DNA of 64,000 nucleotides from Candidatus Iainarchaeum sp. (GTDB taxonomy: Archaea > Iainarchaeota > Iainarchaeia > Iainarchaeales > UBA10219): contig JAGVWE010000003.1 in NCBI GenBank assembly GCA_018304425.1, positions 27,163 to 91,162 on the forward strand, written 5' to 3'. Both the position numbers and the translations under genes were made by a program. The notes under the pieces are model-generated. The model had not been told where the DNA came from. It did not search any database and was given only the letters and a program-made list of their open reading frames with translations. Positions 6,759-62,313 of the stretch are shown piece by piece (within the stretch, counting starts at the first letter, position 1; each line of letters starts with the position of its first letter).

Positions 6759-9144
6759 ACTTCGCGTGCTCGACCGGAAGCCCGCTGACCTGGTGCGGCT
6801 GGGCAAGGAAGCGCAACTCCACCTAAACGAAGGGGAGTTCGCCGCCATCCAGAAATACTTCGAGCGCCTGGGACGCGAGCCCACGCAACTGGAACTGGAG
6901 ACGATTGCCCAGACCTGGAGCGAGCACTGCAAGCACAAGGTGTTCAACGGCGTCATCGAGTACGTGGACGAGCGCGGCCACAAGGAAATCATCGACAACC
7001 TCTTCAAGCGCACCATCCGGAAGGCGACGGAGCGGGTGGCAGGGGAAGTCGGCTGGCTGGTGTCCGTCTTCAAGGACAACGCGGGCATCATTGCCTTCAA
7101 TTCATCCCACCACGCCTGCATGAAAGTGGAAACGCATAACCATCCCAGCGCCCTGGACCCCTACGGGGGAGCGAACACGGGCCTGGGGGGAGTCATCCGC
7201 GACGTGCTGGGCTGCGGCCTGGGCGCGAAGCCGGTCGCGAACACGGATGTCTTCTGCTTTGGGTTGCCGGACCTGGCCTACAAGGACTTGCCAAGCGGCG
7301 TCCTCCACCCCAAGCGCATTGCCAAGGGCGTGCGGGAGGGCGTGCGCGACTACGGCAACCGCATTGGGATTCCGACTGTGAACGGGGCCATCCTCTTCGA
7401 TGCCAGGTACACGTGCAATCCCCTGGTCTACTGCGGCACGGTGGGCGTGCTGCCCAAGGGCATGGAGTCAAAGCAGGCCAGGCCCGGCGACAAAATCGTT
7501 GCCATCGGGGGCCGGACCGGGCGCGACGGCATCCATGGCGCCACCTTTTCCTCCGCGGAACTGGACGAAAGTGTGTCCACCAGCGTGGTGCAAATCGGCA
7601 ACGCCATCGAGGAAAAAAAGTTCTTGGACGTCCTCTTGAAAGCACGTGACCTCCGCTTGTACTCGAGCCTCACCGACTGCGGGGCCGGAGGCTTTTCGAG
7701 CGCGGTCGGGGAGATGGGCGCTGATTGCGGGGCACGCGTCGACCTCGAAAAGGCGCCGTTGAAGTACGCGGGCATGCAGTCCTGGGAAATCTGGGTCAGC
7801 GAGAGCCAGGAACGCATGGTGCTGGCCGTGCCTCCCGGGAACGTCGAGCGGCTCGTGAAATTGTTCGCGGACGAGGACGTGGAAGCCAGCGTCATCGGCG
7901 AGTTCACGGATGACCGGTTACTGAGCGTCCACCATGGCGGGCAATTGGCCGGGCAACTGGACATGGCTTTCCTGCACCGGGGCAACCCGCGGCTCGAGCA
8001 GAAGGCATCCTGGAAGCCCAAGCCCTTCGAGGAGCCCGTCTTTTCGGAGCCCAAAAACCTGGGAAGCCTGCTGAAGCGATTGCTGGCCGCCCCGAATATT
8101 GCCTCCAAGGAGACGACCATCCGCCAGTACGACCACGAAGTGCAGGGAGGTTCCGTCTTGAAGCCGCTGGTGGGAGCGGACCTGGATGGCCCGGGGGATG
8201 CCGCCATCATGCGGCCCTTCTTCGACGGCTGGGCGGGTTTGGCGGTTTCCAATGGCATCAACCCCTTGTATGGGGACATCGACCCCTATTGGATGGCGGC
8301 TTCCGCGATTGACGAAGCCCTGCGGAACCTGGTCGCGGTGGGCTGTTCCCTGGAACGGGTGGCCTTGTTGGACAACTTTTGCTGGGGCAACCCAAAAGAC
8401 GAGGCAAAGCTCGGCGAACTCGTGCGCGCCGCGAAAGCCTGCCACGACGTGGCCGTGGCCTTCAAAACCCCTTTCATCTCGGGCAAGGACTCCTTCCACA
8501 ACGAGTACACGGTGGGAGGCAAGACCGTTTCCATTCCCTCAACCCTCTTGATTTCCGCGTTGGGCGTCATGGGGGACGTGCGGCAACGGGTGTCCATGGA
8601 CTTCAAGCAAAAAGGCAATCCCCTCTACGTCGTGGGAAAAACGTTCCAGGAACTGGGCGGCAGCCACTATTATCGGCTGCAGGGTGCGGTGGGGCGAAGC
8701 GTGCCCAGACTGGTGGTTGCCAGGGCCCGGAAACAGTATGCGGGGCTGGCGAAGGCTGCCGCAATTGGGGTGGGGAAGAAAAACCGCGACCGCGTGGTGC
8801 GCGCCATGCATGACTGCAGCGAGGGCGGCCTGGGCGTGGCATTGGCGGAGATGGCGTTTGCCGGCGGGCTGGGCTGTGAAATCGACCTGCGAAAGCTCCC
8901 ACGCGAGGGCGTGGAACGGAATGACTACGCGTTGTTCAGCGAGAGCAACGCGCGCCACCTCGTGGAAGTCAACAAGTCAAAGCGAACGGCCTTCGAGCGG
9001 CTGCTCAGGGGAACCGATTTCGCCTGCATTGGCCGGGTGACGGGCCCTGGGCGGCTGGTGGTAAAAGGCCTGCAGGGAGAAACCGTGCTGGACGAGGACG
9101 GCAAGGCATTGAAGAAGGCATGGAAGGGGACGCTGAACTGGTGA
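6751..9144 (+). CDS. purL: Phosphoribosylformylglycinamidine synthase II, PurL
   Basis: AIR-synthase-related PurL domains, ~798 aa (small-PurL type); start coupled to the purS stop. Confidence 0.9.
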   Translation: MPELRVLDRKPADLVRLGKEAQLHLNEGEFAAIQKYFERLGREPTQLELETIAQTWSEHCKHKVFNGVIEYVDERGHKEIIDNLFKRTIRKATERVAGEVGWLVSVFKDNAGIIAFNSSHHACMKVETHNHPSALDPYGGANTGLGGVIRDVLGCGLGAKPVANTDVFCFGLPDLAYKDLPSGVLHPKRIAKGVREGVRDYGNRIGIPTVNGAILFDARYTCNPLVYCGTVGVLPKGMESKQARPGDKIVAIGGRTGRDGIHGATFSSAELDESVSTSVVQIGNAIEEKKFLDVLLKARDLRLYSSLTDCGAGGFSSAVGEMGADCGARVDLEKAPLKYAGMQSWEIWVSESQERMVLAVPPGNVERLVKLFADEDVEASVIGEFTDDRLLSVHHGGQLAGQLDMAFLHRGNPRLEQKASWKPKPFEEPVFSEPKNLGSLLKRLLAAPNIASKETTIRQYDHEVQGGSVLKPLVGADLDGPGDAAIMRPFFDGWAGLAVSNGINPLYGDIDPYWMAASAIDEALRNLVAVGCSLERVALLDNFCWGNPKDEAKLGELVRAAKACHDVAVAFKTPFISGKDSFHNEYTVGGKTVSIPSTLLISALGVMGDVRQRVSMDFKQKGNPLYVVGKTFQELGGSHYYRLQGAVGRSVPRLVVARARKQYAGLAKAAAIGVGKKNRDRVVRAMHDCSEGGLGVALAEMAFAGGLGCEIDLRKLPREGVERNDYALFSESNARHLVEVNKSKRTAFERLLRGTDFACIGRVTGPGRLVVKGLQGETVLDEDGKALKKAWKGTLNW

Positions 9145-23893: not shown

Positions 23894-25192
23894 TCAGCCA
23901 TCCTGCCGGAACGGCAAGGCAAAGGAAAAAGTGGTTCCCTCGCCCAGGACGCTCTCACACCAGATCCGGCCCTTGTGGGCCTCCAGGATGCCCTTCGAGA
24001 TGACCAGGCCTAGGCCGGAGCCCTTGACGTTCACGCTGGAAGTGGAACTGGCCTGGAAGAAGGGCGTGAACAGCTTGCGCTGGTCTTCCACGGAAATGCC
24101 AGGCCCGTGGTCGGAGACGCTGACCCGGACTTCGCCTTCCCGCTTCTCCAGGGAAACCAGAATCTCCGTGTCCCTGGCTGAGAACTTGATGGCGTTGTCC
24201 ACCAGGTTGGTCAGCACCTGCGTGATCCGGTCGGGGTCGAAGAAGAAGTCCGGGCAGTCCCCTGCTTTCACCCTGATTTTCACGTTCTTGACCGAGGCAA
24301 TGGGTTGCTCGATTTCCACCACGTAGTCGATGGCTTTCTTGAGGCTGGCCTTGACCGGGAGGGCGCTCATCTTGCCCGCGCTGATCTTGCTGACGTCCAT
24401 GATGCCGGCAATGAGTTTCTCGAGGCGCAGCAGGTTGCGCAGCACCATCTCCAGGCTGCCCTTCTGGTTCTCCGAGACGCTGCCCAGGTAACCGCTCATG
24501 AACATCTGGAGCTGCGCTTTCATGGGCGTCAAGGGCGTGCGCAGCTCGTGGGAGGTTACGCTCAAGAACAAGTCCTTGGCCTTGTCCAGGGCCTTCAACT
24601 CGGCCTGCTGCTTGAACAAAAAGCCGGCCAGGTAGTAGACGGCGAAGGCAATCAGGTAATTGAACAATAGCGTGGAAAACAGGTGGGTCAAGACGTACAC
24701 GGGGTTGTACACCAGCTGGGTTTCGACGACGAAGCCCTCGGCCGGCAACAGCTTCGTGTACTCCAAGGCAACCGCGAACAACAGGAAGGCGTTGGCCAGG
24801 CTCGCCGTGACCAGGGCACGGTTGCCACCCAGGGAAATGCCTTCCACGACGATCAAGAAGAGGTAGAGCCACAGGAACGGGCTGTTGAGGCCCCCACTCA
24901 AGTGGATGCCGCCCGTGGCCAGGATGAGCATGCTCACGCTCTGGATGTTGATGGCATACGACAGGTGCTTGCGGGGCTTGTAGAACTGCAGGTAATTGAG
25001 GCAGGCGATGCCCACCGCGGCCAGGTCCAGCAGCAACACCAGGATGAGGGAGTGCTTCTTGCTCACCACCCAGAGGAAAAACACCACCAGGGCAATGAAA
25101 GCCCCCAGCACCCAGACAAAGGTGAGGTTGTTCCGCAGGGCGCTGGCCAGCCGCTGCTGCTGTTCTGCCTCCGTTTCCTGCTCGCCGGGCAT
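23894..25192 (-). CDS. Membrane-bound sensor histidine kinase
   Basis: About 6 N-terminal TM helices, HisKA H-box (SHELRTPL) and HATPase_c (DHGPGI...GSGLGL). Confidence 0.85.
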   Translation of the reverse strand: MPGEQETEAEQQQRLASALRNNLTFVWVLGAFIALVVFFLWVVSKKHSLILVLLLDLAAVGIACLNYLQFYKPRKHLSYAINIQSVSMLILATGGIHLSGGLNSPFLWLYLFLIVVEGISLGGNRALVTASLANAFLLFAVALEYTKLLPAEGFVVETQLVYNPVYVLTHLFSTLLFNYLIAFAVYYLAGFLFKQQAELKALDKAKDLFLSVTSHELRTPLTPMKAQLQMFMSGYLGSVSENQKGSLEMVLRNLLRLEKLIAGIMDVSKISAGKMSALPVKASLKKAIDYVVEIEQPIASVKNVKIRVKAGDCPDFFFDPDRITQVLTNLVDNAIKFSARDTEILVSLEKREGEVRVSVSDHGPGISVEDQRKLFTPFFQASSTSSVNVKGSGLGLVISKGILEAHKGRIWCESVLGEGTTFSFALPFRQDG

Positions 25193-25215
25193 GCGTAGGA
25201 TTAACGGAAAACCCG

Positions 25216-25223
25216 TATATATA
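25216..25223. promoter_or_regulatory. TATATATA box shared by the divergent HK and nucS genes
   Basis: ~24 nt from the HK ATG (minus) and ~23-29 nt from the nucS ATG (plus). Confidence 0.4.
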
Positions 25224-25245
25224 CTTAAGCCTTTTTGCGGCAGGA

Positions 25246-26040
25246 ATGGGTATGGACCTGGTTCACGCGCGCAAGCTGGTGGCCGAAGCCATCCAGAACC
25301 AGGAAATGCTGATGGTCATCGGCGACTGTTACGTGGAGTACTGGGGGCGCGCGGCCTCCAAGCTGCCGCGGGGGAAAAGGCTGTGCCTCATCAAGGGGGA
25401 TGGCTCGTTCGGCATCCACCAGAACAAGAAGCTGCGGCCCGTCAACTACATGATGGGCGCGGCCATTGCCTCGGAAGTCAAGGACGGCTGCCTGCTCCTG
25501 AGCGCGAAAAAGGCCAAGCCCAAAGAAGAAATAAGGGTCCACTTTTACGCCGTGGACGGCGTGCACCGCTATGCCATGGACGACCGGGAAGACGTGCGGC
25601 TGTTCGGGAGCGAGCGGGAGCTGAGCGGCCAGCTGATGACGGACCTGAGCTTCATCGAGCCCGGCCTGACCCCGATGAAATCAGAGGCGCCCTTCCGCAA
25701 GGGCACGGTGGACATCCTGGCCGAGGACGGGAGGGGAAGACTCGTCGTCATCGAAGTCAAGCGCCGCAAGGCCGAGTTCGACGCCGTGACGCAGCTGGAA
25801 CGGTACATGAAGCAGGTGCGCAAGCTGAAGGGCCGCGAGACCAGGGGTTTGCTTATCGCACCCGAAATCAGCCCCCACGCCCTGGAGTTGCTGGAACAAT
25901 CGGGCCTCGAGTTCTACCAGTTCGACTACGAGGTGGGCAACCCCCGAGCCACCATCAAGGGCGTGCGGAAAAAGCAGCCCACCCTGAGCGAGTACCTGGG
26001 CACGCCAAGCGCACCGCTCCTCTCCCGGGGCAAGGATTAA
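25246..26040 (+). CDS. nucS: Endonuclease NucS (EndoMS, mismatch-specific RecB-like nuclease)
   Basis: NucS N-terminal domain plus a RecB-like D..E.K core (VDILAEDGRGRLVVIEVKRRKA). Confidence 0.82.
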   Translation: MGMDLVHARKLVAEAIQNQEMLMVIGDCYVEYWGRAASKLPRGKRLCLIKGDGSFGIHQNKKLRPVNYMMGAAIASEVKDGCLLLSAKKAKPKEEIRVHFYAVDGVHRYAMDDREDVRLFGSERELSGQLMTDLSFIEPGLTPMKSEAPFRKGTVDILAEDGRGRLVVIEVKRRKAEFDAVTQLERYMKQVRKLKGRETRGLLIAPEISPHALELLEQSGLEFYQFDYEVGNPRATIKGVRKKQPTLSEYLGTPSAPLLSRGKD

Positions 26041-31337: not shown

Positions 31338-31401
31338 GAACCATGAGAAGGCACAAACCTATTTAAACCCTTGACCACCCAAGTCTATTGTGTGGGATGG
31401 C

Positions 31402-32582: not shown

Positions 32583-33011
32583 CTAGGGCTTACAGTAAAG
32601 CCCTTTCAGCCCGGTGGCTTCCTCGGTTTTGCGGTAAACCCGGGCTTTGGACGCCAGCAGGGTTATCTCGTTGGTCACATGCACCACGGCATTGAATAAA
32701 TGGCCGCCCCAGGCCTTGTGACCCGAGTCCCCGATGCAGGCATGCAAGTGGAAGTCAAAGCCTTTTTCGGCGTTCCGCGAAAACAGGCCGGAGAGGGCCA
32801 CCAGTTCGACGGCTTCCTTCCACGTTCGCCGAAGATATTCGCCTTTTTTCACGAAATAGCCGAGCTCGCACTCGCCGAAGGCGCCTAGGCCTGAGGCAAT
32901 GACGGCTGTCCGGAGTTTGTGCTTCCGGCCCACGGCTTCAAGGGAGGCGTGCACGTTTTCCCCTGGAAACAAGCGCACGAAGACCAGGTTGCCTTGCATT
33001 TTGGACTGCAT
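32583..33011 (-). CDS. PPC/DUF296 domain protein
   Basis: 142 aa with DUF296-like conservation; CCTATTTAAGGG ~35 nt upstream on the minus strand. Confidence 0.5.
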   Translation of the reverse strand: MQSKMQGNLVFVRLFPGENVHASLEAVGRKHKLRTAVIASGLGAFGECELGYFVKKGEYLRRTWKEAVELVALSGLFSRNAEKGFDFHLHACIGDSGHKAWGGHLFNAVVHVTNEITLLASKARVYRKTEEATGLKGLYCKP

Positions 33012-33052
33012 CTAACCACAAGAAAAACGACGGATGCCCTTAAATAGGTTGC

Positions 33053-33102
33053 TAAAAAAAAGGCCGGGAAAAAAAGGTGCAAGTATAAAAACCTTCCCGG
33101 CC
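33053..33102 (-). terminator. Strong hairpin (GGCCGGGAA/TTCCCGGCC, 9-bp stem) followed by a T9 run on the minus strand
   Basis: Perfect inverted repeat flanked by an A9 run on the plus strand (a T-run for minus-strand transcripts). Confidence 0.5.
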
Positions 33103-33579
33103 TGTCGATGTAACAATCAATACAAAAAAAATTTTGTCACGCGGTTAACTTAACAACTCGTGCAAGTTTTACAAAGTCTTTTATAAAAGGTTGAACATAG
33201 TATTGGTCGAGGTGGTTAAACACAAAAAGTTTAACTAACTTAGTTCAATGGTTTGGAGGCAGGCTCACTCTGCTAATAGAGTAACATTGTTCTCATGGTC
33301 CAGTCCTCCAAACCATCCCATTTCTCCTGCTTCTTTCCCGTTGTTTCCGGGCCCCGCCTTGCGCGCTTTGCGGGTGGAAAGATTTTTTAATGCGAACAAC
33401 GTAGTTAATGGGTGAAACCGTGAGTGGAACCAGTAGTGCGGCCGCGATGTTCTTGATTGGCATGGTGGTGGGCAGGTTTTTGCCGGCGTTCCCCGAGCCC
33501 TTTGGGGTCGTGAACCAGTTCCTGCCCCTCCTCCTCATCGCCTTGGCGCTCTTGCTCTTCGTCCGGGGCTGAAACAGGC

Positions 33580-33999
33580 TTACCAGCGGCGTTTTCGGGG
33601 CTTCTTGGCCTTGCCCGGCCGCTTCCGGGCGGGCTTTTTGCGGGCGACCCCTCGGCGCCCCGCCTTCCGGGGGCGGGAAACCGGGCCCGGCTTCAAGCCC
33701 AGCGCGCGGGCGGACAACAGGCGAGCCAACTCCACGCTTTGCTCGTGCAGCGAGGGCGGAATCAATCCAATGGCTTTGAAGACCCCGGCCTTCACCCGGT
33801 AATGGCGTTCGAGGAGGCTGCCGAGTTCTTCGATGGAGGCACTGGACGCCTCGCCTTCGACGGCCAAGACAAACGAGTGAATGGCGTGACCCAACTCGGT
33901 TAAACCCTTTTTCCGCGCCTCGGCACCCCGCGCGGCCTTGACCGCTTCGGCCTGGGCCAAGGCCTTCCGGTCAACGGCTTCCGCAAGCAAACCCAACAA
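33580..33999 (-). CDS. Hypothetical protein with a highly basic C-terminal tail (KKPARKRPGKAKKPRKRRW)
   Basis: Starting at the track's upstream ATG would place the TATA inside the ORF, overlapping the divergent gene. An in-frame TTG at 33999 lies ~30 nt from the palindromic TATTTAAATA on the minus strand. Confidence 0.4.
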   Translation of the reverse strand: MLGLLAEAVDRKALAQAEAVKAARGAEARKKGLTELGHAIHSFVLAVEGEASSASIEELGSLLERHYRVKAGVFKAIGLIPPSLHEQSVELARLLSARALGLKPGPVSRPRKAGRRGVARKKPARKRPGKAKKPRKRRW

Positions 34000-34079
34000 A
34001 ACCCTCCAACCATTGAAGGCAATAAACGTATTTAAATAGATTCGCGTCCAAATTAACTCATTCAATCGGAGGTCATTCC

Positions 34080-34244
34080 ATGGGAAAAGAGCTTTCAAAG
34101 GAACTGCTGGAAGTCCTGGCCTGCCCGGCCTGCAAGGGAGACCTGGACTACCAGAAAGCAAAAGACCAACTGGTCTGCAAGAACAAGGCCTGCAAGCGCG
34201 CCTACAAAGTCGAAGACGGCATCCCGATCATGCTCGTGGAGTGA
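34080..34244 (+). CDS. Trm112-like small zinc-binding protein (54 aa)
   Basis: ATG ORF below the track cutoff: LACPACKGDL...CKNKACKRAYKVEDGIPIML. GGAGGT SD 6 nt upstream; TATTTAAATA ~45 nt upstream. Confidence 0.55.
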   Translation: MGKELSKELLEVLACPACKGDLDYQKAKDQLVCKNKACKRAYKVEDGIPIMLVE

Positions 34245-34932
34245 CCTTCCTTGGACGTCGGGTGCGCTGGGAAGCCAAGGACCTGATTAAAGGAGCGGAT
34301 TTCCGACCCGGGCTGTGCTTTTTTCTCGGTGCTTCAGGCGACAACACAAACCCTTCGGCCAATAAACTTTTCCGCAGCCGCTTACGGGCGCGCCACAAGC
34401 GCTGGTCAACTGCGTTTCTTTTCAGTCCGAGTACGGCTGCAATCTCTTCTGGTGTCTTATCGCCTTGAATGGACAACCGCAATACTGCCGCCTCCCTAGG
34501 GGGCAGCAAGCCAATCGCATTTTCAATTAAGGCAACGGCTTCACGGCTTTCCAGTGTATAATGGCGCGTTCTCCGCGCACGATAACGCTCTTCCGCATCT
34601 GCGGGAAGTTGGCGGAGCGGATGGCTACGTTGGGTACGCCATTCCAGTAAAAAAGTGTTCTTCACGCCGCGTGTCAAATATCCAATCAAGCCATCCTCCG
34701 TTTTGGCTACCAGTTTCCCTGTAACCCAATTCCATGCGACCTCGGCTGCCCGCGCACGCATCAGTTCACGCAAATGACGTGTGGAGAGATTGCGATATTC
34801 AGGCAGCAGGTGTCTGTAAAGGATCCGCCCCATGGCACTATCCCAACCCGGCCGCGTCCTGTCGAGCATGGCCAGTAAATCTTCTATCGCACGGTTGTCA
34901 CTAGCCGTATACCCGTGAACTGGACCTGACAT
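34228..34932 (-). CDS. Sigma-70/ECF-like protein (region 2 plus region 4 HTH)
   Basis: Region-4.2-like LPPREAAVLRLSIQGDKTPEEIAAVLGLKRNAVDQRLWRARKRLRK and region-2-like YLTRGVKNTFLLEWR. Start at MSGPVH (34932) ~27 nt from TTTTTATTT. Confidence 0.6.
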   Translation of the reverse strand: MSGPVHGYTASDNRAIEDLLAMLDRTRPGWDSAMGRILYRHLLPEYRNLSTRHLRELMRARAAEVAWNWVTGKLVAKTEDGLIGYLTRGVKNTFLLEWRTQRSHPLRQLPADAEERYRARRTRHYTLESREAVALIENAIGLLPPREAAVLRLSIQGDKTPEEIAAVLGLKRNAVDQRLWRARKRLRKSLLAEGFVLSPEAPRKKHSPGRKSAPLIRSLASQRTRRPRKVTPRA

Positions 34933-34985
34933 ACACCAGATACACACACGACCCCAAATAAAAAGGTTACCTTCCTTCCTCTGTC

Positions 34986-35466: not shown

Positions 35467-35841
35467 TTAGGCGCCTGGAATGAATTCGGCGAACGGCTTG
35501 CCGGAAAAGTGCTGGTCGCCGGTGAGCAGTTTCTTCTCGGCGCTGGCATAGGAATAAATGATGGCGTCCGCCAAGTGCAGGCCCTCAGCCTCGCACAAGT
35601 TGCCGGCCTCTATGGCCCGCTCGGCAGTAAGGGGCAGCACGAGACTGTTCTGCATGACGTAATCAATGGCTTGATTCCGTTCAGCATCCGAAAATTTCCG
35701 TTTGACAAGGATTCTGGTGAGTTCACTTAGGACCAGGGTTGGCGTTTCGAGGTAGTTCCCTTCCAGCATGGACTTGAAGGGGGAGGCAGCATCCCCAAAA
35801 TAGGATACCCAAGCATAGGTGTCAACGATATAGGTCTTCAT
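35467..35841 (-). CDS. vapC: PIN-domain toxin VapC
   Basis: PIN acidic residues (IVDTYA, LSEL, LADAII, TGDQHF). Confidence 0.78.
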   Translation of the reverse strand: MKTYIVDTYAWVSYFGDAASPFKSMLEGNYLETPTLVLSELTRILVKRKFSDAERNQAIDYVMQNSLVLPLTAERAIEAGNLCEAEGLHLADAIIYSYASAEKKLLTGDQHFSGKPFAEFIPGA

Positions 35842-36031
35842 GAATTTCTTCCTCGACGATGTCCTTGGTCGAAATGCGCCCGGCTAAGAAACCGGCCAAG
35901 CTCTTTTTCTTCTTGAACAGGCCCTCAACCAGGATTTCGTTGGCTAATTTGGATAGGTTGTCGGGAGAACGTTGGCGGAGCTTGGCGAAGACCGCTTCAT
36001 CCAACACCAAGGTGGTGCGCACTTTGGACAT
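35822..36031 (-). CDS. vapB: VapB-like antitoxin
   Basis: Small ORF overlapping the vapC start (MSKVRTTLVLDEAVFAKLRQ); TTAAATAAAA ~30 nt upstream on the minus strand. Confidence 0.5.
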   Translation of the reverse strand: MSKVRTTLVLDEAVFAKLRQRSPDNLSKLANEILVEGLFKKKKSLAGFLAGRISTKDIVEEEIHEDLYR

Positions 36032-37829: not shown

Positions 37830-38164
37830 TCAAACCCCTACTTGAGATTATTTAACAAAAACAGACTAATTTATTGGCGCAACGGTTATTTAAACCTTTT
37901 TACAAACCCCGTTTGCGAAAAAAAGGCGAGAAAAGGCCCTAATTTGGGAAAAGCGTTCCACTGAAAAAACGATTTTACTTCGACTTTTTCCCATAATAGA
38001 TGACGCGATTAGAGTTTAAATACCTAACGGGCGCCAATCCTCTTTCCACGACAGACGGCGACTATTGAAGGACTACCGCCCCATCGAACCCTGCGGGTGA
38101 GATGGGGCACGTCCGCGATGTCAACCCCCATGGGGGCCTAATCGGCTGGCGCCTCGTCAGTTGT

Positions 38165-38237
38165 GGGGGTGTAGTCTAGCCTGGCAGGATTCGAGGTTCG
38201 GGACCTCGCGGCAGGAGTTCAAATCTCCTCACCCCCA
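38165..38237 (+). tRNA. tRNA-Pro (anticodon CGG)
   Basis: Cloverleaf fits: acceptor GGGGGTG/CACCCCC, D-arm AGCCTGGCA, anticodon stem CGAGG/CCTCG with loop TTCGGGA, T-arm AGGAG-TTCAAAT-CTCCT. CCA not encoded. TTTTTTT immediately 3'. Confidence 0.85.
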
Positions 38238-38242
38238 TTTTT

Positions 38243-46277: not shown

Positions 46278-47468
46278 TTAGGCCCTGGCTTTGACCGCTG
46301 CGCACTCCCGCTTCAGGAGTTCGGCCTTGTCCGTGCGCTCCCAGGTGAAGTCCGGGTCGTCTCGTCCAAAGTGCCCGTAGGCGGAGGTCTTGGCGTAAAT
46401 CGGGCGCCGCAGGTTCAGGGCCTTTATCATGGCTGCAGGCCGGAAGTCGAAGTGCTTGAGGACCGCGTTGTACAAGGCCTTTTTGTCGACTTTCTCGGTG
46501 CCGAAGGTGTCTACCATGACGCTGATGGGCTTTGCCCCGCCGATGGCATAGGAAAGCTGTATCTCGCACTTGTCGGCGAGGCCTGCGGCAACCACGTTCT
46601 TGGCCGCGTAGCGCGCCATGTAGGCTCCGGACTTGTCCACCTTGGACGGGTCCTTACCGGAGAATGCCCCGCCGCCGTGGTTGCCGATGCCGCCATAGGT
46701 GTCGACGATTATTTTCCGGCCCGTGCAGCCGGCGTCCGCAACGGGCCCGCCGAGAACGAACCGGCCCGTGTTGTTGATGAAGTACTTCGTGTCCGCGTCC
46801 GCCAACGCGCCGCAAACCGGCTGGATGACTTCGCGCTTGATGTCTACCCTGAGCTTGTCCAGGGAAACATCGGGGTCGTGTTGCGCGGCGATGACCACGG
46901 CTTCCACGCGCTTGGGCTTCCCGTTCGCGTACTCGATGGTCACCTGGCTCTTGCCGTCCGGCCTGAGGTAAGTGAGCACGCCTTTCTTGCGGACTTCGGC
47001 CAGCTTGTGGCAGAGCCGGTGGGCCAGCAGGATGGGCAGGGGCATCAGCTCCGGGGTCTCGTTGGTCGCGTAGCCGGACATCATGCCCTGGTCGCCCGCT
47101 CCGACTTCCTTGTCACCGCTCGCGTCCACGCCCAACGCTATGTCGGGGCTCTGCTTGTTGATGGAAGTCAGCACGCCGACGCTCTGCGCGTCGAAACCGT
47201 ACTCGGGCTTGGTGTAGCCGACTTCGCGGAGGACGTTGCGCACGATTTGCTGCACGTCAACGTAGGTCCGGGTCGTAATCTCGCCCGTGACCAAGATGAA
47301 GCCGTTGCCGGCCATGGTCTCGCAGCCGACCCGTGCCAGGGGATCGTCCTTGTAAATGGCGTCCAGGATCGAGTCGCTGATGCGGTCGCATACCTTGTCC
47401 GGGTGCCCTTCCGTTACTGCCTCCGACGTGAACAAAAAGTCTCCGTTGCGCATGGTGTTTCCTCCCAA
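46278..47468 (-). CDS. metK: S-adenosylmethionine synthetase, bacterial/eukaryal MetK type
   Basis: [25 protein letters not shown] and full MetK domain order. Confidence 0.9.
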
Positions 47469-59529: not shown

Positions 59530-60888
59530 ATGAAGACCCCTGAAAAACCGCCGAGCTGGCCTAGTGAATTACGTACTTTCGTGAAAACAAACGATTTGCC
59601 AAAAATGCTTCAGGACAGCGAATTGTCCGGCATAATCAAGGAGAGCCAGAGAAAATATCTGTATTGGGAGGAACTCAGGCACCGCTACCCTAACCCGTCT
59701 CATCCCCACAAGTCCATCTGGGCGATTATCAAGCTTTTCAGGGTACAGCAATACAAGTCCATTGTGATAGGGGGTCGAGTTTTCAATTACTTTCTCACAG
59801 AGTCAGCACAAGAAAAACTTCGTTACGCTGATTCGCATGCCGGACAAATAATTGGTTCGGAATCTCCCCGCGATAAGTTTCAGGGCGGGGAAAGGAAGCG
59901 CTACCTGATTAATTCCCTGATGGAGGAAGCCATTGCTTCAAGCCAATTGGAGGGGGCAATGACTACTCGCAAGGTCGCCAAAGAAATGCTTAGAACAAAA
60001 CGCGAGCCAAGAAGCAAAAACGAGTTAATGATTTACAACAACTACCAAACAATTAAATACATTAAAGACCTTTTTGAGACCTCAAACGCAGGGGACAGCA
60101 AACTAACGTCTTCCTTGATTTTATCATTGCATAAGCTCATAACTAAAGGCACGCTTAAGAACCCGCGAGCCGAAGGAAAGTTCAGGGGCACGGATGACAT
60201 AATAGTCCGAGATGATGCCAACGAAGTAGAATACGTTCCCCCACCACATAATCAAGTCCCCACCCTAGTCAACGACTTATGCGATTTTGTGAATGCTCCA
60301 GCCCTCCCGTTCATTCACCCGCTAATTAAGGCCATAATACTCCACTTTCTGGTTGGATATATTCATCCATTTGAGGACGGCAACGGCAGGGCTGCGAGAG
60401 CCTTATTTTACTGGTTTTGCTTAAAGTCCGGTTACTGGCCCTTTGAGTTCATGCCCATTTCAAGGATAATAAAGAAAGCACCGGCAAAGTACGCGAGAGC
60501 ATTTCTTTTCACGGAATACGATGACTTGGACATGAATTACTTCATTGAATTCAATTTAGACGCGATAAAGCAGGCAATCGTTGAACTTGGCGCTTACCTG
60601 AAGAAAAAACAAAAAGAAAAAAACGAGGCGCTACAGTTAATGACTAAATTGGCCAAGGACCTTAATCTACGCCAATCCCTTATATTGAAGGACTTAGTGG
60701 AAGAACCTGAAAAAGCTCTCTCAATAAAAGAAACAAGTGCGAAATACAATGTAACCTATCAAACAGCGAGAACGGATTTATTGGAACTCTCAAAAAAAGG
60801 CTATCTTGGCCTACACAAGAAACGAAAGCAGTTCGTGTTTTATAAATCAGACAAATTCGACGAAAAAATAAGAACGGACAAAAACTGA
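59530..60888 (+). CDS. fic: Fic-family protein (AMPylation/phosphocholination fold) with C-terminal winged-helix region
   Basis: Fic motif HPFEDGNGRAARAL; 452 aa; low-GC gene. Confidence 0.88.
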   Translation: MKTPEKPPSWPSELRTFVKTNDLPKMLQDSELSGIIKESQRKYLYWEELRHRYPNPSHPHKSIWAIIKLFRVQQYKSIVIGGRVFNYFLTESAQEKLRYADSHAGQIIGSESPRDKFQGGERKRYLINSLMEEAIASSQLEGAMTTRKVAKEMLRTKREPRSKNELMIYNNYQTIKYIKDLFETSNAGDSKLTSSLILSLHKLITKGTLKNPRAEGKFRGTDDIIVRDDANEVEYVPPPHNQVPTLVNDLCDFVNAPALPFIHPLIKAIILHFLVGYIHPFEDGNGRAARALFYWFCLKSGYWPFEFMPISRIIKKAPAKYARAFLFTEYDDLDMNYFIEFNLDAIKQAIVELGAYLKKKQKEKNEALQLMTKLAKDLNLRQSLILKDLVEEPEKALSIKETSAKYNVTYQTARTDLLELSKKGYLGLHKKRKQFVFYKSDKFDEKIRTDKN

Positions 60889-60893
60889 AACGC

Positions 60894-60903
60894 CCAAGGC
60901 GTT
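60894..60903. repeat. 10-bp direct repeat CCAAGGCGTT (right copy); also part of the hairpin AACGCC-caa-GGCGTT plus T5
   Basis: Matches 59306..59315; embedded in a terminator-like hairpin between the convergent fic and trmB-like genes. Confidence 0.35.
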
Positions 60904-61592
60904 CAAGGCTTTTTAAGGGGGTGCAGGTGGGCCGCGAGGAACGGGCTTTCCAGGAAGAGCGCGCGCTCCTTGCGGGGGTCTTCCAGGGGCGGGTGCAAGA
61001 ACAAGAGCACGCGTTTTTGGTCGAAAACCGCATATCTCCCGGTCGGGCTTGCCTTATAATGGACTTTAACGCCTTTCCTGGCCAACTTATCGTTTTTTGC
61101 AGACAAGACCCCTTGTTTTCGCTTGATTCCCTCCCGGTCCGAGCAAATTACCACGCTTTCCCTGCAATTATCCGTTTCCTCGGCGATACGGTTGTAGATG
61201 GTGTGCCGGCCGGTGAGGATGACTGCGTCCTCGGCAACGCCTTGGCGTTCCTCTTTGGCGCCCTCGAGGAGGCTGGACAAGGAGAACGCAATGGTCTTCA
61301 ATTCCTGCAAGTCCTTGTGGTGGCGCTCCGTTTTGTCCAGGGCCAGGTTCTTGTACACGGTTTCCAGGCGAAGGGCCTTGAACTCCACGGGCTTGCTGGG
61401 CCTCCGCACCACGAAGCCCTTGGCCTCCAGGGAGGAAAGCACGTCATAGATGCGCGCCCGGGGAATGCCCGCGTCCTTCGACAACACCGCCGGCGTAGCG
61501 GACCCGAACCGCGAGAGCGCGGAATAGGTCTTGGACTCGTACTCGTTCAAGCCCAACCGCTTCAAGGAATCCAGGAGCTCGTGTCTAGGCAT
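60903..61592 (-). CDS. TrmB-family transcriptional regulator
   Basis: N-terminal TrmB HTH (LGLNEYESKTYSALSRFGSATPAVLSKDAGIPRARIYDVLSSLEAKGFVVR). Confidence 0.72.
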   Translation of the reverse strand: MPRHELLDSLKRLGLNEYESKTYSALSRFGSATPAVLSKDAGIPRARIYDVLSSLEAKGFVVRRPSKPVEFKALRLETVYKNLALDKTERHHKDLQELKTIAFSLSSLLEGAKEERQGVAEDAVILTGRHTIYNRIAEETDNCRESVVICSDREGIKRKQGVLSAKNDKLARKGVKVHYKASPTGRYAVFDQKRVLLFLHPPLEDPRKERALFLESPFLAAHLHPLKKP

Positions 61593-61695
61593 TCACCATC
61601 GACTAGTAGTAAGTCGTTACTAGAATAAATAGGTTGCGCGCCCGGGCAAGCCGTGGTTGCCACGGTTTTTAAACCCCTGCCCAGTCATTACCGCT

Positions 61696-62313
61696 ATGTG
61701 GGGGCCCGTTCGCAACCTGTTTTACTTTTTCTTCGACCTGCTCTCCAACCCGGCCAAGTGGTCGGTGTACCAATTCCTCCACCACCCCCTGCCGCCCTAC
61801 CAGGTCAACGTGGGCTGCAACAAGAACCTGGTGAGCGGCTGGATCAACGTGGACCGGGGCGGCAACGCCCGCCGCGCGCTGCGCATCGACATCCTGGGCG
61901 GCCTGCCCTTTGAGAATAACTCGGTCCGGTTCATGGCCAGCAGCCACTTCCTCGAGCATTTGACGCGGGCGGAAGCCAGGCAATGGTTCCGGGAAATCCA
62001 GCGCGTCCTCCAACCAGGGGGCGTTGCCCGCTTCGCCTTCCCCGAACTCGGCTACTTCGTGCGGCAATACGCGGCAGGCCGGATGCAGGCCTTCCTCAAC
62101 GACCCCGACACCAATGGAGACAAGTTCAACCACTTGTTCTACGACTACGAGCACCGCTATATCTACGACGAGGAAACCCTTCGAAAGGACCTCACGACAG
62201 CCGGTTTCAGGGAAGTCCGCTCCGCGTCATGGAACCAAAGCCAGTGCAAGGAATTGCAGGGCCTCGAAGGGGACAACCCCTACAAGGTTCCCTGCTACGA
62301 GGCCGTCAAGTGA
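61696..62313 (+). CDS. Class I SAM-dependent methyltransferase
   Basis: Methyltransferase fold motifs (VNVGCNKNLVSGWINVDR; LPFENNSVRFMASSHFLEHL). ATG at 61696, ~25 nt downstream of TTTTTAAA. The track ORF starts at 61657. Confidence 0.65.
   Translation: MWGPVRNLFYFFFDLLSNPAKWSVYQFLHHPLPPYQVNVGCNKNLVSGWINVDRGGNARRALRIDILGGLPFENNSVRFMASSHFLEHLTRAEARQWFREIQRVLQPGGVARFAFPELGYFVRQYAAGRMQAFLNDPDTNGDKFNHLFYDYEHRYIYDEETLRKDLTTAGFREVRSASWNQSQCKELQGLEGDNPYKVPCYEAVK

Follow-up and report, generated by a model that had tools for sequence, protein, structure and literature searches.

The window analysed here comprises 64,000 nucleotides (nt) of contig JAGVWE010000003.1 (assembly GCA_018304425.1, positions 27,163 to 91,162 of the forward strand) from Candidatus Iainarchaeum sp., a groundwater DPANN archaeon whose public protein copies are named Candidatus Diapherotrites archaeon or Candidatus Iainarchaeum sp. 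On the evidence of sequence comparison, the 396-bp spacer at 33012-33407, between a PCC/PPC-domain gene (hereafter PCC) and an open reading frame (ORF) for a small protein with two transmembrane (TM) segments, holds a selected non-coding element. With a confidence slightly above even, we read this element as an independent, undescribed and clade-restricted gene for an intergenic small RNA (sRNA) of about 179 nt, encoded on the plus strand at approximately 33210-33388. We infer transcription, the RNA ends and a role in trans; what we observe is conservation, promoter-like geometry, hairpins and their pattern of variation. A preliminary description of the region had already raised a plus-strand structured non-coding RNA of about 180 nt ending near 33390, and the comparative evidence favours that proposal, although the arguments first offered for it proved weak or wrong. 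Its report of a drop in GC content to about 35-40% agrees with our values (0.355-0.365 across 33000-33299, against about 0.59 for the window); the intergenic region, however, is shorter than the 570 bp it gave, the small ORF occupying the remainder. The only other spacer of similar length in the local gene map is one of 429 bp at the tRNA-Pro locus (38164-38238). The parts of the element and of its proposed control region are as follows, the counts of lineages referring to the window and the relatives introduced below.

33124-33131, minus strand: run of T8 (A8 on the plus strand), found as T7-T8 in all five lineages.
33132-33178, no strand assigned: conserved block with TTTTGTCAC, GGTTAACTTAACAAC and AGTTTTACAAAG, upstream of the TATA box.
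33179-33190, plus strand: palindromic archaeal TATA box TTTTATAAAA (box at 33179-33188) followed by GG, kept in all relatives.
33209-33212, plus strand: predicted start of transcription, 21-24 nt downstream of the TATA box and at the opening of the conserved GAGGTGG block.
33214-33236, plus strand: hairpin H1, GGTTAAAC pairing with GTTTAACT, eight pairs, one of them G·U, around a 7-nt loop.
33248-33316, plus strand: hairpin H2, with an outer 12-bp stem that is a perfect inverted repeat and that encloses helices of 3 bp and 6 bp.
33317-33352, plus strand: C/U-rich single-stranded linker with CUCCU/CUUC motifs, pyrimidine-rich and of variable sequence in the four full-length lineages.
33353-33374, plus strand: GC hairpin H3 (CCCGC...GCGGG), the proposed 3' stem of the RNA.
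33383-33390, plus strand: T6AA (T6 at 33383-33388), the only plus-strand T-run of at least five in 33000-33420.

The window was compared with four diverged lineages (L011, L016, L010 and L023/L024), all retrieved through the neighbouring genes or an exact pattern, whose PCC proteins are 73-88% identical to that of the window: about 73% for L011 and L016, 75% for L010, whose contig stops within the element, and 88% for the L023/L024 cluster. Eight public contigs encoding an identical PCC protein have a spacer that is 100% identical and hence uninformative. Between the window and L011/L016, the flanking genes are 68-75% identical and other spacers 30-48%, whereas identity reaches 90-98% in the core at 33148-33267 and 78% at 33268-33307. 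The 40 bp at 33148-33187 are the most conserved (98%), and the segment of about 20 nt between the TATA box and the predicted start has 75-78% identity, below either flank. Since core identity exceeds that of the flanking coding sequences (CDS) and of the other spacers, these alignments indicate that the non-coding core at 33125-33320 is under stronger constraint than the surrounding proteins. The element is syntenic in all five lineages, across which it shows the conservation above the neutral level that characterises archaeal intergenic sRNAs. Beyond them, distant PCC homologues (50-52% identity) have lost the synteny and the element is absent; a scan of a genome collection with the PCC protein gave a sole match, to an unrelated Cloacimonadota, and a pattern scan of metagenomes returned one true homologue (L016) and eight chance matches. 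A coding core was considered and rejected: in L023 an insertion of 1 nt breaks the 55-aa ORF at 33248-33415 after nine codons, and indel lengths are not multiples of three.

Gene starts in the window have TATA boxes of the type TTTAAATA or TTATATA followed by GG, 22-34 nt upstream, and several of these boxes are common to divergent genes. The TATA-like element TTTTATAAAAGG at 33179-33190 fits this TATA+GG pattern; of the two plus-strand TATA-like elements noted in the preliminary description it is the conserved one, the other, at about 33082, lying in a part of the spacer that is not conserved. We propose the box at 33179-33188 as the promoter of the sRNA, and it is probably bidirectional. Judged by the TATA spacing at leaderless genes in the window, transcription is predicted to start at 33209-33212, so that the element, like known archaeal intergenic sRNA genes, combines an intergenic site with a TATA promoter of its own at the canonical distance. 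The archaeal factors TBP and TFB would bind the palindromic box, and the RNA would start about 22 nt downstream of it, at the conserved GAGGUGG. The same box probably fires in the minus direction too, in which case a very short transcript would be stopped by the T8 run at 33124-33131; this run may terminate such a divergent transcript or may insulate the PCC gene. Alternatively, the block upstream of the box would bind a regulator of the promoter.

Elsewhere in the window, the short divergent spacers at 31338-31401, 25193-25245 and 33997-34079 each contain a single palindromic TATA (such as TTTAAATA and GTATATATAC) that apparently serves both genes, and promoters of the bidirectional kind seem frequent in this genome. 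At one such locus a histidine kinase gene (HisKA and HATPase_c domains; 23894-25192, minus strand) is divergent from the plus-strand ORF at 25246-26040, recognised by eye and presumably NucS-like, and the TATA box is common to both.

Within the block at 33132-33178, TAACTTAACAAC and TTGTCAC are invariant in five lineages, and AGTTT(T/C)A also occurs. The block has no conserved pairing: a CACG/CGTG stem predicted by RNAalifold is broken in L023, for which reason a structured minus-strand RNA over the block was rejected. The block may be regulator-binding DNA or may give rise to a short minus-strand RNA. The main alternative to an sRNA gene is that the element is cis-regulatory DNA: the palindromes (GTTAAAC-N-GTTTAAC, GTTAA-G-TTAAC and the 12-bp inverted repeat) and the upstream block would bind one or more transcription factors or chromatin proteins, through which both the divergent PCC gene and the small ORF's promoter would be regulated, and no stable RNA would be made. 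Conservation peaks at 33148-33187, where no pairing is conserved, a GTT(T)AACT(T)AAC-like motif is found twice, at 33144-33158 and at 33229-33240, the region is AT-rich, and the stems are invariant in sequence rather than covarying. The neighbouring PCC protein is annotated as a DNA-binding protein, and a TrmB regulator and a helix-turn-helix (HTH) protein with a sigma-70 region 4 domain are encoded near the spacer. We nevertheless regard cis-regulatory DNA as unlikely. The core lies at no fixed distance from the PCC TATA box, insertions of as much as about 43 bp occurring in between, in sequence that is itself unconserved; the block has a TATA box of its own at the right distance from the point where conservation resumes; and a 12-bp repeat split by 45 bp would be an unusual operator. 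The variation in the hairpins, described next, bears on the same choice.

The sRNA would fold into two hairpins of invariant sequence, H1 and the long H2 with its 15-nt internal loop, followed by the single-stranded C/U-rich linker and the GC-rich 3' hairpin H3. The GGTTAAAC-N7-GTTTAAC hairpin named in the preliminary description is indeed found at 33214-33236, as is the perfect 12-bp inverted repeat with 45 nt between its arms at 33248-33316; the palindrome AACTAA-C-TTAGTT is likewise present but is not conserved. The H1 stem is invariant in five lineages, and its loop occurs as four sequences with lengths of 7 nt and, in L023, 5 nt. Because the loop varies in sequence and in length around an invariant stem, H1 is better explained as a hairpin than as an operator of fixed spacing; the 2-bp shift in half-site spacing in L023 is a point against cis-regulatory DNA. 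The segment between H1 and H2 is variable and measures 11-17 nt. In H2, the outer stem is formed by ATGGTTTGGAGG and CCTCCAAACCAT (33248-33259/33305-33316), the 6-bp helix at 33267-33282 carries the loop CUAA, and the asymmetric internal loop of 15 nt lies on the 3' side (33290-33304). The outer stem is kept in L011/L016 and L023, with single-base bulges that stem from changes in homopolymer length.

Against shuffled sequences, the z-scores were -3.1 for H1, -3.2 for H2 and -2.6 for H2 in L011. In the structural alignment of H1-H2, which was checked by hand, 4/60 paired columns are variable versus 27/56 unpaired ones (Fisher p=4.7e-7). Standard pairs fill 125 of 126 cells when the alignment is read on the plus strand versus 117 of 126 on the minus strand, a difference that is due to three G·U positions. 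Two of the three switch to A-U or G-C in L011/L016 (G·U<->A-U and G·U<->G-C, in inner H2 pairs), and read on the minus strand the switching positions would give A·C mismatches. In H2, the changes preserve plus-strand G·U pairing and break the symmetry of the DNA, which again argues against sites that are read as DNA.

At the position of H3 a hairpin is found in all four full-length lineages, built from three unrelated stems: CCCGC/GCGGG in the window, GGCGA/TCGCC in L023 and CCCCCCCUCC-UUCG-GGAGGCGGGGG in L011/L016, whose C(UUCG)G tetraloop is confined to the plus strand. H3 is kept as a structure and not as a sequence, the last of the points that speak against cis-regulatory DNA. The conservation of hairpins in related genomes, whose absence the preliminary description had named, together with a lack of transcription, as refuting its reading, was seen for the stems of H1 and H2 and for the H3 hairpin in the relatives compared.

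Oligo-T alone is the accepted signal of archaeal transcription termination. We propose T6 as the oligo-U terminator of the sRNA, so that RNA polymerase would terminate at the U6 tract. From the predicted start up to T6, plus-strand T-runs of at least five are absent in every lineage, and the minus strand of the window has six such runs across the spacer; this asymmetry is consistent with selection against an early oligo-T stop in a plus-strand transcript. Together, H3 and U6 look like a Rho-independent (intrinsic) terminator, but H3 is weak here, the T-run would also suit as TATA box of the following gene, and in L023 the hairpin persists while the T-run has decayed. The sequence GAAAG-N-TTTTTTAA occupies 33378-33390, and T6AA probably doubles as the TATA box of the small two-TM ORF, keeping a constant distance of 29-32 nt to the ORF start wherever the ORF is present. 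In L023, T6AA has decayed to ATTTCCGA, with T5CT5, 60 nt beyond it, as the next T-run.

This arrangement at the 3' end bears on a further explanation, in which the element is a long structured 5' leader, similar to an attenuator or riboswitch, of the small membrane-protein gene, transcribed from the TATA box at 33179 through H1, H2 and H3, with H3 and U6 as a conditional terminator. The neighbouring gene has these coordinates:

33420-33572, plus strand: gene for the small two-TM protein, outside the element (50 aa with GTG 33420 as the start, 54 aa with ATG 33408).

The preliminary description had found no convincing protein ORF, which is wrong for 33408-33572 (165 bp): the two-TM ORF is called in every public contig, the NCBI annotation being the 50-aa form, and its orthologues in the relatives have 72-74% amino acid identity. 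No Pfam family matches the 50/54-aa protein. Alignment of the orthologues suggests GTG 33420 (MSGTSSAAAMFLIG...) as the start in preference to ATG 33408. The element is co-oriented with the ORF and adjoins it in three of the four full-length lineages, and the hairpin and U-tract stand directly upstream of the start codon, with a Shine-Dalgarno-like GGGUGA 6 nt 5' of GTG 33420. In L023, however, the ORF is deleted. Since L023 lacks the small ORF and its TATA box yet keeps H1, H2, the linker and H3, we conclude that the element is more than the leader or the promoter of that ORF, and the obligate linkage expected of a leader is broken. The ORF moreover has its own BRE/TATA-like GAAAG-N-TTTTTTAA, conserved at the distance given above; no family of riboswitches or leaders was matched in Rfam; neither a conserved junction of several helices nor an evident alternative anti-terminator pairing was seen; and complementarity between the element and the start region of the ORF was no better than in shuffles. 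A regulatory leader, which the preliminary description had offered as one option, is accordingly disfavoured, and we consider it improbable.

The sRNA gene that we favour shares several traits with archaeal intergenic (trans-encoded) sRNAs, a class that includes sRNA154 and sRNA162 of Methanosarcina mazei and the itsRNAs of Haloferax volcanii (PMC5867862). Members of this class are 50-500 nt long, have TATA promoters and are often restricted to a genus (PMC5867862); sRNA154 is conserved in its genus and has two functional stem-loops (PMC5867862). The element has the intergenic site, a size within 50-500 nt, its own TATA promoter and conservation in a narrow clade, and it likewise has predicted stem-loops with unpaired segments free to pair. 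It differs from these sRNAs in having no sequence or Rfam relationship to them, in being known here from sequence alone, in its uncultured DPANN host, in hairpins that are invariant rather than covarying, and in the extra conserved block upstream of the promoter. By analogy with the class, the sRNA would most likely act in trans. The C/U-rich linker is a candidate target-pairing region, and either the linker or the internal loop of H2 would pair with purine-rich (Shine-Dalgarno-like) segments of mRNAs, the invariant hairpins serving as recognition or stability elements. Alternatively, the RNA could be bound by protein through the invariant hairpins.

C/D box and H/ACA guide sRNAs are also small, intergenic and hairpin-containing, and they are common in archaea. 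The element differs from both kinds. Neither a C box (RUGAUGA) nor a D box (CUGA) occurs on either strand of 33120-33400; no ACA/ANA box is found 3' of the H2 arm on the plus strand, and the 15-nt internal loop of H2 is one-sided, on the 3' side, and not a two-sided pseudouridylation pocket.

Several observations weigh against an sRNA gene. The scan for known families (signal recognition particle (SRP) RNA, RNase P, sRNAs) that the preliminary description had put forward gave no family for the spacer: at Rfam 15 gathering thresholds the sole match in the window is tRNA-Pro at 38165-38237; at E<10 the spacer has chance-level matches only (13-25 bits against thresholds of 36-115); and L010, L011 and L016 have no match in common, so that the element is without any Rfam family match even at E<10 in the window and these three relatives. 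With relatives retrieved through neighbouring genes or an exact pattern, it is detected in one narrow clade only, comprising the five lineages. The GC hairpin followed by T6 was correctly located by the preliminary description (33353-33374 and 33383-33388), but in the window genome H3 is no more stable than shuffles (z +1.1). Nor is the fold of the whole 211-nt plus-strand stretch more stable than those of shuffles (z -0.8), and the minus strand equals or surpasses the plus strand in this respect. No double compensatory change occurs in H1 or H2, and the covariation score was reached by 122/500 shuffles, which is not significant in a test that is under-powered with three sequences. In a genome of 59% GC, a structural RNA would not typically be AT-rich. 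Finally, the top-conserved segment at 33148-33187 lies upstream of the proposed start and is without conserved pairing; a function at the DNA level fits it better.

The AT-rich character of the spacer also recalls archaeal oriC, and the spacer could be a replication origin or another DNA-structural site in which an AT-rich unwinding element is flanked by inverted repeats. It is AT-rich over about 300 bp, contains inverted repeats and is unusually long for a compact genome. A typical archaeal origin is an AT-rich region flanked by several origin recognition boxes (ORBs) beside an initiator gene (PMC4010727). Pfam scans that covered about 39 of the ORFs in the 64-kb window turned up neither an orc1/cdc6 nor a whiP-like initiator. 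No match to TTCCASTGGAAAY with up to three mismatches was found in 33012-33407, the nearest match lying inside the PCC CDS; this ORB/mini-ORB pattern derives from Pyrococcus sequences (PMC1904270). The spacer has a single long repeat pair, whose 45-nt interval is not AT-rich, and there is no inflection of the GC skew. We therefore think an origin very improbable.

Even less credible, in our judgement, is a remnant of a mobile element, of a miniature inverted-repeat transposable element (MITE) or of an att site, or else a type I toxin-antitoxin system composed of the small hydrophobic ORF and an sRNA. The inverted repeats, the adjoining small hydrophobic ORF and the PIN toxin and clade-restricted genes nearby would suit such an origin, and the preliminary description had mentioned a mobile-element or viral att remnant. 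That suggestion finds no support: the element is single-copy in the 64-kb window, and a covariance model of H1-H2 (R1) found no second copy in the 144 kb of sequence searched; viral contigs, plasmids and phages gave no match; synteny is stable in five lineages, with no integrase or transposase nearby; and decay would lower conservation, which here exceeds the CDS level. For a type I toxin-antitoxin pair, the energies of sRNA-mRNA duplexes were no better than those of shuffles in three lineages. The pattern scan also brought up, by chance, an unrelated metagenome contig (L020) with a long, almost perfect palindrome at one end (7001-7121); the palindrome scores 36 bits with model R1 solely through the common GTTTAACCACCTC word and probably reflects either an artefact of assembly or a hairpin end.

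The PCC side of the spacer, and the spacer as a whole, have these coordinates:

33054-33103, minus strand: hairpin with a 10-bp stem (33061-33070/33094-33103) and a 23-nt loop plus T8, species-specific, upstream of the PCC promoter.
33040-33047: TATA box of the PCC promoter.
33011, minus strand: start codon of the PCC/PPC-domain gene, identified with Pfam and annotated 'DNA-binding protein'.
33012-33407: the 396-bp spacer, from the PCC gene to the small two-TM ORF.

The hairpin at 33054-33103 is the minus-strand terminator of the preliminary description. A hairpin and a T-run are present there, but the stem has 10 bp, the run is T8 and not T9, the structure was not called by a terminator scan, and it is not conserved in L010, L011, L016 and L023, which carry minus-strand T-runs of some kind at its place. 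The use of this terminator as an argument for an unannotated transcript does not hold, since it is species-specific and has no conserved link to an orphan transcript.

Several genes of the window deserve mention in their own right. The minus-strand gene at 33580-33996 always adjoins the element and is convergent with it in L023; it encodes a clade-restricted protein of 138 aa with just four homologues among 5.8 billion sequences, for which a four-helix bundle with a disordered K/R-rich tail is predicted, a fold without a significant match in PDB. In the HTH gene mentioned above (34228-34947, minus strand), the sigma-70 region 4 domain (Pfam E 7e-12) is of a bacterial kind although the genome is archaeal, and the GC content of the gene at third codon positions (GC3), 0.53, is below that of its neighbours. 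At 35467-36031 (minus strand), a PIN-domain (VapC-like) gene overlaps a 69-aa upstream gene by 20 bp, and the two look like a VapBC-type toxin-antitoxin pair. Further away, the S-adenosylmethionine synthetase gene at 46278-47468 (minus strand; MetK N/M/C domains) is of the bacterial/eukaryotic type, not of the usual archaeal type, and may have been acquired horizontally. The plus-strand gene at 59530-60888 encodes a Fic/DOC-domain protein, has a low GC3 (0.50) and lies in the region of the 2-kb block of lowest GC content in the window (60001-62000, 0.51); it may be foreign DNA.

DPANN archaea are known largely from metagenome-assembled genomes (MAGs), and we found no description of regulatory RNAs in them in the literature searched. 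We put at about an even chance the broader proposal that the element represents an undescribed, clade-specific RNA family of DPANN archaea (Iainarchaeum/Diapherotrites), with a bidirectional TATA promoter and invariant hairpins that serve as a protein-binding scaffold or a regulator, in a reduced-genome and probably symbiotic archaeon. For a candidate gene that belongs, as far as seen, to one narrow clade, the impact of the finding is at present modest. It does provide a concrete and testable candidate sRNA for DPANN archaea, conserved above the coding level and equipped with a recognisable promoter, hairpins and terminator, and it suggests that AT-rich 'holes' in GC-rich MAGs can flag genes of the sRNA type. 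If the reading is true, the element would count with the earliest candidates for a regulatory RNA to be defined in the DPANN superphylum.

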